Source: Escherichia coli (lineage in GTDB: Bacteria; Pseudomonadota; Gammaproteobacteria; Enterobacterales; Enterobacteriaceae). Taken from it: a stretch of DNA of 64,000 nt. The position numbers and the translations under genes are program-made. The notes under the pieces were generated by a model, which ran no database searches, was not told the origin of the DNA, and saw nothing but the letters and a program-made list of their open reading frames with translations. The stretch is from NCBI RefSeq assembly GCF_003334815.1, contig NZ_QOWO01000020.1; one strand, written 5' to 3'. Shown here in pieces: positions 43,826 through 44,401 of the stretch (positions within the stretch are counted from its first letter, which is position 1; each line of letters begins with the position of its first letter).

Positions 43826-44401
43826 ATGGAATACTTTGATATGCGTAAAATGTCGGTGAATCTGTGGCGAAATGCTGCCGGTGAAACGCGCGAAATTTGC
43901 ACGTTCCCACCGGCAAAACGTGATTTTTACTGGCGTGCCAGCATTGCATCCATCGCGGCGAATGGGGAGTTTTCTTTGTTTCCCGGCATGGAAAGGATAG
44001 TGACGTTGCTGGAAGGCGGCGAGATGCTCCTTGAAAGCGCAGACCGCTTTAACCATACCTTAAAACCGTTCCAGCCTTTTGCCTTTGCAGCGGACCAGGT
44101 GGTAAAAGCGAAACTGACGGCAGGGCAGATGTCGATGGATTTCAACATCATGACACGCCTGGATGTCTGTAAGGCGAAAGTCAGAATTGCCGAACGTACG
44201 TTTACTACCTTTGGCTCACGCGGCGGGGTGGTGTTTGTGATTAACGGGGCGTGGCAACTGGGCGATAAATTGCTCACTACCGACCAGGGCGCGTGCTGGT
44301 TCGATGGCAGGCACACCCTGCGGCTTTTACAACCGCAAGGTAAACTGTTGTTCAGTGAAATCAACTGGCTCGCTGGTCATTCGCCGGATCAAGTTCAGTA
44401 A
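43826..44401 (+). CDS. ves: HutD-family protein Ves (191 aa)
   Basis: ORF track 43763..44401 trimmed to ATG 43826 ([25 protein letters not shown]...) with GGGAG Shine-Dalgarno. Confidence 0.88.

Follow-up and report, generated by a model that had tools for sequence, protein, structure and literature searches.

The convergent genes ves and cho of Escherichia coli share 41 nt at their 3' ends, and this overlap is real and dual-coding; we consider it likely to be a tolerated by-product of genome compaction, modest at most in its effect on regulation, and not a selected switch. In the 64,000-nt stretch of DNA analysed here (the window), the region concerned is E. coli spy-ves-cho-nadE, and the ves and cho reading frames end within the same segment, with both stop codons falling inside it and the genes lying on opposite strands (Table 1). 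The 3' end of ves reads ...CAA GTT CAG TAA, and the frames overlap in phase (123:132), with ves codon positions 1, 2 and 3 opposite cho positions 1, 3 and 2. The coordinates, strands and tail-to-tail arrangement given in the first-pass annotation are borne out by the sequence, by the list of open reading frames and by RefSeq, which on a 100%-identical E. coli locus places ves at 3227..3802 (+) and cho at 3762..4649 (-), yielding the same 41-nt overlap; in MG1655 (U00096.3) the shared bases correspond to 1824368..1824408. The gene layout is identical in the K-12 record and in one divergent clinical strain, the 1.9-kb region was found in 5426 of 5426 complete E. coli genomes, and 5405 of these contain a match to the 101-nt junction, which reaches 99% identity or better in 4010. 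The overlap is already known, both as an annotated feature and through an excludon reading that is already in print.

Table 1. Features of the spy-ves-cho region and of a second convergent overlap in the window (window coordinates).
Feature	Coordinates	Strand	Details
nudG/ynjH convergent overlap	26866..26900	both	35 nt; ynjH 26628..26900 (+), nudG 26866..27273 (-); K-12 annotation
spy terminator hairpin	43643..43701	bidirectional	-40.8 kcal/mol (+), -32.6 kcal/mol (-); T-runs on both sides
sigma-28 (FliA) ves promoter	43747..43774	+	AACGTAAATCACCCGAGTTGCCGATAAC; identical to the site of Fitzgerald et al.
-10 element of the ves sigma-28 promoter	43767..43774	+	GCCGATAA
ves CDS	43826..44401	+	191 aa, HutD family; stop TAA 44399..44401
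C-rich, G-poor stretch	44166..44308	-	cho transcript past its stop; C/G up to 1.9; candidate Rho-loading region
12-bp hairpin	44314..44342	-	no U-tract; 19 nt downstream of the cho stop, inside ves
cho CDS	44361..45248	-	295 aa, GTG start, UvrC-like GIY-YIG nuclease; stop TGA 44363..44361
ves/cho dual-coding overlap	44361..44401	both	41 nt; phase (123:132)
Overlap part A	44361..44380	both	conserved Ves end I179..H185 ('..EI.WLPGH') opposite non-conserved Cho N290..S295 and stop
Overlap part B	44381..44401	both	clade-specific Ves S186..Q191 and stop opposite Cho I283..A289
C-rich, G-poor stretch	44532..44661	+	ves transcript past its stop; C/G up to 1.9; candidate Rho-loading region
LexA-box-like site	45272..45287	-	CTGTTACACTGGATAG; 24-39 nt upstream of the cho start

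Both products match curated protein families along most or all of their length. Ves matches its NCBIfam equivalog with 427 bits (cut-off 292) over residues 1-191, and Cho matches its own with 580 bits (cut-off 367) over residues 1-287; Pfam HutD covers residues 8-175 of Ves. Solved relatives in the PDB are 5fcc and 1yll (HutD) for Ves and 1ycz (the GIY-YIG domain of UvrC) for Cho, and orthologues of the two proteins occur in up to 79 of the loci surveyed below.

To describe the junction across the Enterobacteriaceae, we located the cho and ves stops in 80 loci harboring a Cho orthologue, taking one genome per species. [quoted passage not shown] An overlap of 45 nt was detected in two Citrobacter-like isolates, one of 32 nt in Leclercia, Silvania and a single Enterobacter asburiae locus, one of 23 nt in Enterobacter and Lelliottia (18 loci), overlaps of 15, 10 and 7 nt in scattered genera, and a classical 4-nt TTAA stop-on-stop arrangement in Kosakonia. 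The stops are separated by 3 nt in Franconibacter pulveris, by 28 to 48 nt (28, 46 and 48) containing a palindromic hairpin in Enterobacter ENT03 and Pseudescherichia, and by approximately 1.8 kb of other DNA in the Cedecea group. No ves lies beside cho in Klebsiella, Raoultella, Salmonella arizonae and diarizonae, C. sedlakii and others, amounting to about 19 of the 80 loci, and in most of these ves-less genomes cho converges directly on spy. Convergent adjacency is retained in about 55 of the 80, and most genera having ves keep the tight, terminator-less packing. The palindromes inserted between the two stops in Enterobacter sp. ENT03 and Pseudescherichia vulneris are GC-rich and unrelated to one another (e.g. 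GCCCCTGAACCGGCAGGCGATTGCCGGTTCAGGGGGC).

Variation at the locus was also seen within E. coli. The annotation of strain GN4738 gives ves as a pseudogene containing an internal stop; in HCP4S3_I4, cho is truncated beside Mu-like mom and com genes; and in 675SK2 and YPE12, IS1 copies lie in or near the ves/cho region.

Comparison of the junction with that of related genera points to a simple route to the 41-nt state. The distance from the Ves H185 codon to the Cho K-P-L codons is 40 nt in E. coli and 31 nt in Enterobacter, Lelliottia and Leclercia. The 9 extra nucleotides in E. coli, TCGCCGGAT, which encode S-P-D in Ves and D-P-A in Cho, are located where these three genera have their ves stop, and the second in-frame stop of those genera lines up with the TAA that ends ves in E. 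coli. Judging from this alignment, the 41 nt can be derived from the Enterobacter state as the sum of its 23 nt, a 9-nt insertion and 9 nt gained by reading on to the back-up stop, and an overlap of 32 nt equals 23 nt plus a 9-nt extension of cho. In the lineage of Escherichia and Citrobacter, an in-frame insertion of 9 nt and loss of the primary ves stop lengthened Ves by six codons, up to the back-up stop. With Cho carrying a 9-residue tail, each variable tail is written over the conserved end of its partner, giving 41 shared bases. On this reading the arrangement is an ordinary convergent overlap generated by stop-codon drift in a tightly packed pair with no terminator between the genes. 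The cho/ves junction provides a natural series (overlaps of 4 to 45 nt, gaps, inserted hairpins and loss of ves) that illustrates how convergent overlaps can grow through stop-codon drift and small insertions.

The overlap falls where both proteins pass from conserved core to variable tail. The last invariant or near-invariant residues are G279 and L286 in Cho and I179 and W181 in Ves, the consensus C-terminal ends read ..YEIIEL and ..EITWLPGH, respectively, and the conserved cores finish about 10 nt apart, at 44380 for Ves (..WLPGH185) and at 44391 for Cho (..EL286). Beyond these points lie the variable tails, D287..S295 in Cho and S186..Q191 in Ves. AlphaFold models, of moderate quality overall (mean pLDDT of 76 and 65 for Cho and Ves, respectively), place the last strands at residues 282-285 of Cho and 173-181 of Ves, with low confidence beyond.

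To assess selection inside the overlap, we compared mean pairwise differences by codon position inside and outside the shared segment in 15 Escherichia and Citrobacter sequences, obtaining P values by resampling. At cho third positions the difference was 0.06 in part A and 0.11 in part B, against 0.48 outside (P < 5e-5 in both cases), and at ves third positions it was 0.38 in part A (44364..44380; P = 0.27) and 0.25 in part B (44381..44398; P = 0.03), against 0.43 outside. The ves frame is dominant throughout the overlap, and cho third positions are nearly frozen there. In part A, site variability tracks the ves frame only. The Cho tail behaves as a passenger whose second positions change with every synonymous change in ves. 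Because Cho second positions follow these changes, the tail varies even within Escherichia (ANDQRAS, ENGLQAS, VNSLPAS). Part B, where the conserved '..EL' terminus of Cho lies, appears to be constrained in both frames; this pattern is the signature of genuine dual coding rather than an indication of a non-coding regulatory element. Given the apparent constraint on both frames in part B, the Ves tail may be functional.

Overlaps of this kind are not exceptional, either in the window or in the genome. Of 10 convergent CDS pairs in the 64-kb window, two overlap by at least 35 nt according to the K-12 annotation, the second being nudG/ynjH (Table 1). Two further convergent pairs, tcyP/ydjO (around 56434..56438) and ynjE/ynjF (around 27980..27989), are separated by gaps of 3 nt and 8 nt, too short for an intergenic terminator, and ynjE-ynjF features on the excludon list discussed below. 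Lillo & Krakauer (2007; PMC2174442) counted 58 convergent overlaps in E. coli, with phase (123:132) the commonest among convergent overlaps of at least 5 nt (49%), and reported statistics that agree with an origin by stop-codon mutation. The ves/cho overlap is not rarer than expected and represents ordinary gene packing. Taken by itself it matters little: it is an annotated feature of every E. coli genome, falls in a class that is well described, and has already been named an excludon candidate.

The two genes respond to different regulators. Cold induction of ves is said to have been described by Yamada et al. in 2002. The RefSeq product name is "environmental stress-induced protein Ves". The first-pass description of ves as stress-induced omitted the best documented driver of the gene, which is sigma-28 (FliA) and not a general stress signal; published expression data, SELEX and a conserved motif all point to sigma-28. 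The sigma-28 promoter upstream of ves is listed in Table 1; ves RNA falls from 18 to 0 in a fliA mutant (Fitzgerald et al. 2014), a sigma-28 SELEX peak has been reported at the ves locus and assigned within ves, and a sigma-70 SELEX peak has been reported in the spy-ves spacer. Of 59 Enterobacteriaceae loci, 48 have a TAAG-N14-17-GCCGATA motif ahead of ves, in spacers that have otherwise diverged, and on the strength of this motif ves looks like a conserved gene of the flagellar regulon. The motif is absent from the Pseudescherichia-like loci having a hairpin between ves and cho.

The description of cho as SOS-induced is upheld: it is a LexA/SOS gene, which a review tabulates among the LexA genes whose SOS box is known, and the window contains a LexA-box-like site upstream of its start (Table 1). 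SMRT-Cappable-seq places a cho transcription start site at MG1655 position 1823491, approximately 45278 in the window, and also detects a nadE-cho co-transcript. Term-seq and bicyclomycin data for LB and M63 cultures (Adams 2021) revealed a Rho-dependent 3' end 24 nt into cho as the gene is annotated there, with a region of Rho termination some 260 nt inside the same gene; the corresponding ends, at MG1655 positions 1823539 and 1823784 on the cho strand, map to approximately 45230 and 44985 in the window. It follows from these early ends that part of the uninduced transcription of cho stops before the overlap, and they suggest that premature termination constitutes a second layer of cho control besides LexA. 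The nadE-cho spacer also harbors a match to the ES036 (CssrF) sRNA at 45356..45398 (-), with an Rfam score of 42.9 bits, above the gathering score, and, adjoining it, a sub-threshold naRNA4/REP-type hairpin at 45402..45438 (+).

Scans for intrinsic terminators, using both consensus and permissive hairpin/U-tract definitions, detected none within several hundred nucleotides of the junction on either strand. A shared bidirectional intrinsic terminator, that is, a GC-rich hairpin with an A-tract on one side and a U-tract on the other, was likewise not found between or across the 3' ends of ves and cho, and an Rfam search matched nothing at the junction. On the plus strand, the nearest canonical terminator downstream is the REP hairpin of the nadE-cho spacer; on the minus strand it is the spy hairpin, about 660 nt beyond the cho stop, which cho read-through would meet before any other. 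The spy hairpin is bidirectional, even though spy and ves have the same orientation. In genera without ves, a homologous spy hairpin is found in the short cho-spy spacer, and in Salmonella arizonae and diarizonae it adjoins the cho stop, which suggests that this hairpin once served, or still serves, as the terminator of cho, with ves now lying between the two. A 12-bp hairpin just downstream of the cho stop (Table 1) was considered as a conserved 3'-end structure and rejected, being specific to Escherichia, not kept in Citrobacter and unsupported by covariation; RNAalifold recovered only 4 pairs at -1.4 kcal/mol, and the local fold z-score was -1.45.

C-rich, G-poor stretches 50-200 nt past the cho stop and 130-260 nt past the ves stop are candidate sites of Rho loading on the respective transcripts (Table 1). 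With no hairpin/U-tract terminator nearby, RNA polymerase leaving each gene would enter its partner in the antisense direction and would then be halted by Rho acting on untranslated C-rich RNA, with cho read-through ending at the latest at the bidirectional spy hairpin. The Term-seq data of Adams (2021), obtained in LB and M63, place no 3' end within ves or at its junction with cho, and the SMRT-Cappable-seq supplements contain no end coordinates in the ves/cho junction region. Transcript ends lying inside each coding region ahead of the overlap, which the first-pass annotation had listed as counter-evidence to antisense interference, are published for cho, where they are Rho-dependent and come from cultures without SOS induction, and none is listed for ves in Term-seq.

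Since the complete reading frames share the 41-nt segment, full-length ves and cho mRNAs are necessarily complementary over at least 41 nt at their 3' ends, each carrying the complement of the last 41 nt of the other gene. Transcription of ves by sigma-28 together with that of cho upon LexA release could bring about head-on polymerase collisions, and co-transcription could generate a duplex of at least 41 bp cleavable by RNase III. Antisense interference between the two genes, as the first-pass annotation proposed, is on this analysis plausible. A search of the published literature for ves/cho antisense effects or pair-specific expression returned only promoter SELEX tables, and the supplements of the Fitzgerald 2014 RNA-seq study of a FliA mutant contain no values for cho.

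A stronger proposal is that the shared 3' region has been selected as a functional convergent excludon enforcing mutually exclusive expression, with transcription of one gene, triggered by sigma-28, cold or stress for ves and by SOS for cho, repressing its partner by means of colliding polymerases and a 3' duplex cut by RNase III. The ExcludonFinder map of E. coli (PMC12288877, 2025) lists cho-ves as a convergent excludon, placing it in the core excludome with overlapping transcription in at least 50% of 58 MG1655 transcriptomes, and reports above-average synteny for excludon pairs as a class. No terminator separates the two genes, their promoters answer different signals, the tight junction is retained in many genera, and mscL-arfA provides a proven precedent in E. 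coli (PMC10070815). The listing, however, offers no independent support, because any CDS overlap is scored automatically, and in the same study capture of double-stranded RNA with p19 was uninformative for convergent pairs and could not validate them. The overlap, moreover, ranges from 45 nt down to none, some lineages carry an inserted hairpin and others have no ves, both genes are weakly expressed and seldom together, and without SOS induction the Rho-dependent 3' ends of cho map early within the gene. [quoted passage not shown] A tolerated by-product of compaction remains our preferred reading of the overlap.

The lack of a canonical terminator on both strands also fits a model in which head-on and trailing collisions between polymerases at the gene boundary set both 3' ends, a mode of termination demonstrated in vitro and by SEnd-seq for other gene pairs (bioRxiv 2022.10.23.513370). 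Such termination, however, needs an intergenic stem-loop to position the collisions, and no conserved stem-loop exists at ves/cho; both genes are, in addition, weakly transcribed and rarely co-expressed, and we judge this model improbable. We see very little chance for a broader scheme in which ves and ynjH, driven by sigma-28, are deliberately read into the convergent repair genes cho and nudG as antisense brakes, with SOS-induced cho in turn silencing ves. Conservation of the ves sigma-28 promoter at 48 of 59 loci and the presence of two parallel overlaps in one window are compatible with this idea and do not demonstrate it; if true, motile cells with active FliA would damp the repair functions of cho and nudG, linking the motility and DNA-repair regulons through cis-antisense transcription. 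Finally, many long overlaps (>60 bp) are misannotations (Pallejà et al. 2008; PMC2478687), but the notion that one stop or one gene is wrong here, and hence that no true overlap exists, is almost certainly incorrect, since 41 nt lies below the 60-bp warning threshold, both frames are directly readable from the sequence, both proteins fit curated equivalog models along most or all of their length, the stops are fixed by the sequence, a start-annotation artefact is excluded because the choice of start codon has no bearing on a 3' overlap, and the overlap with intact frames is common to Escherichia and Citrobacter, which together effectively rule out the mis-annotated stops that the first-pass annotation had named as a potential refutation.

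The ves/cho pair is a handy test case for whether excludon calls resting only on CDS overlap carry regulatory meaning, as the two promoters can be switched separately through FliA and through LexA/SOS. Like the convergent excludons catalogued in the E. coli map (PMC12288877), cho-ves combines overlapping transcripts with a short, here negative, intergenic distance; its overlap lies in coding sequence, whereas that of convergent excludons lies in 3' UTRs, and functional excludons are defined by opposing expression and RNase III dependence, whereas cho-ves is known from its listing. The mscL-arfA pair (PMC10070815) is similarly a convergent, stress-related pair with complementary 3' ends, but in that case control of the partner gene through processing of the duplex by RNase III has been shown genetically and in vitro, and the likeness to ves/cho is one of arrangement. 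The pairs with bidirectional terminators described by Wang et al. (bioRxiv 2022.10.23.513370; SEnd-seq data) are also convergent with overlapping transcript ends, but they share an intergenic stem-loop, which ves/cho does not possess, the nearest being the spy hairpin. Within the window, nudG/ynjH resembles ves/cho in pairing a small FliA-dependent gene (ynjH) with a partner involved in DNA damage or mutation avoidance (nudG), and nudG-ynjH, a separate gene pair, is, like cho-ves, on the excludon list. The pair also belongs with the convergent overlapping genes of prokaryotes at large, which arise by stop-codon mutation (Rogozin 2002; PMC2174442; PMC2478687) and in which, as here, the 3' ends of two genuine genes of opposite orientation coincide. 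The ves/cho overlap has the same phase (123:132) and a length under 60 nt, and its relatives display both an origin by stop loss and use of a back-up stop and the minimal TTAA state; it differs from these overlaps in nothing essential, and is set apart by the unusual clarity of its graded series of 4, 7, 15, 23, 32 and 41 nt.
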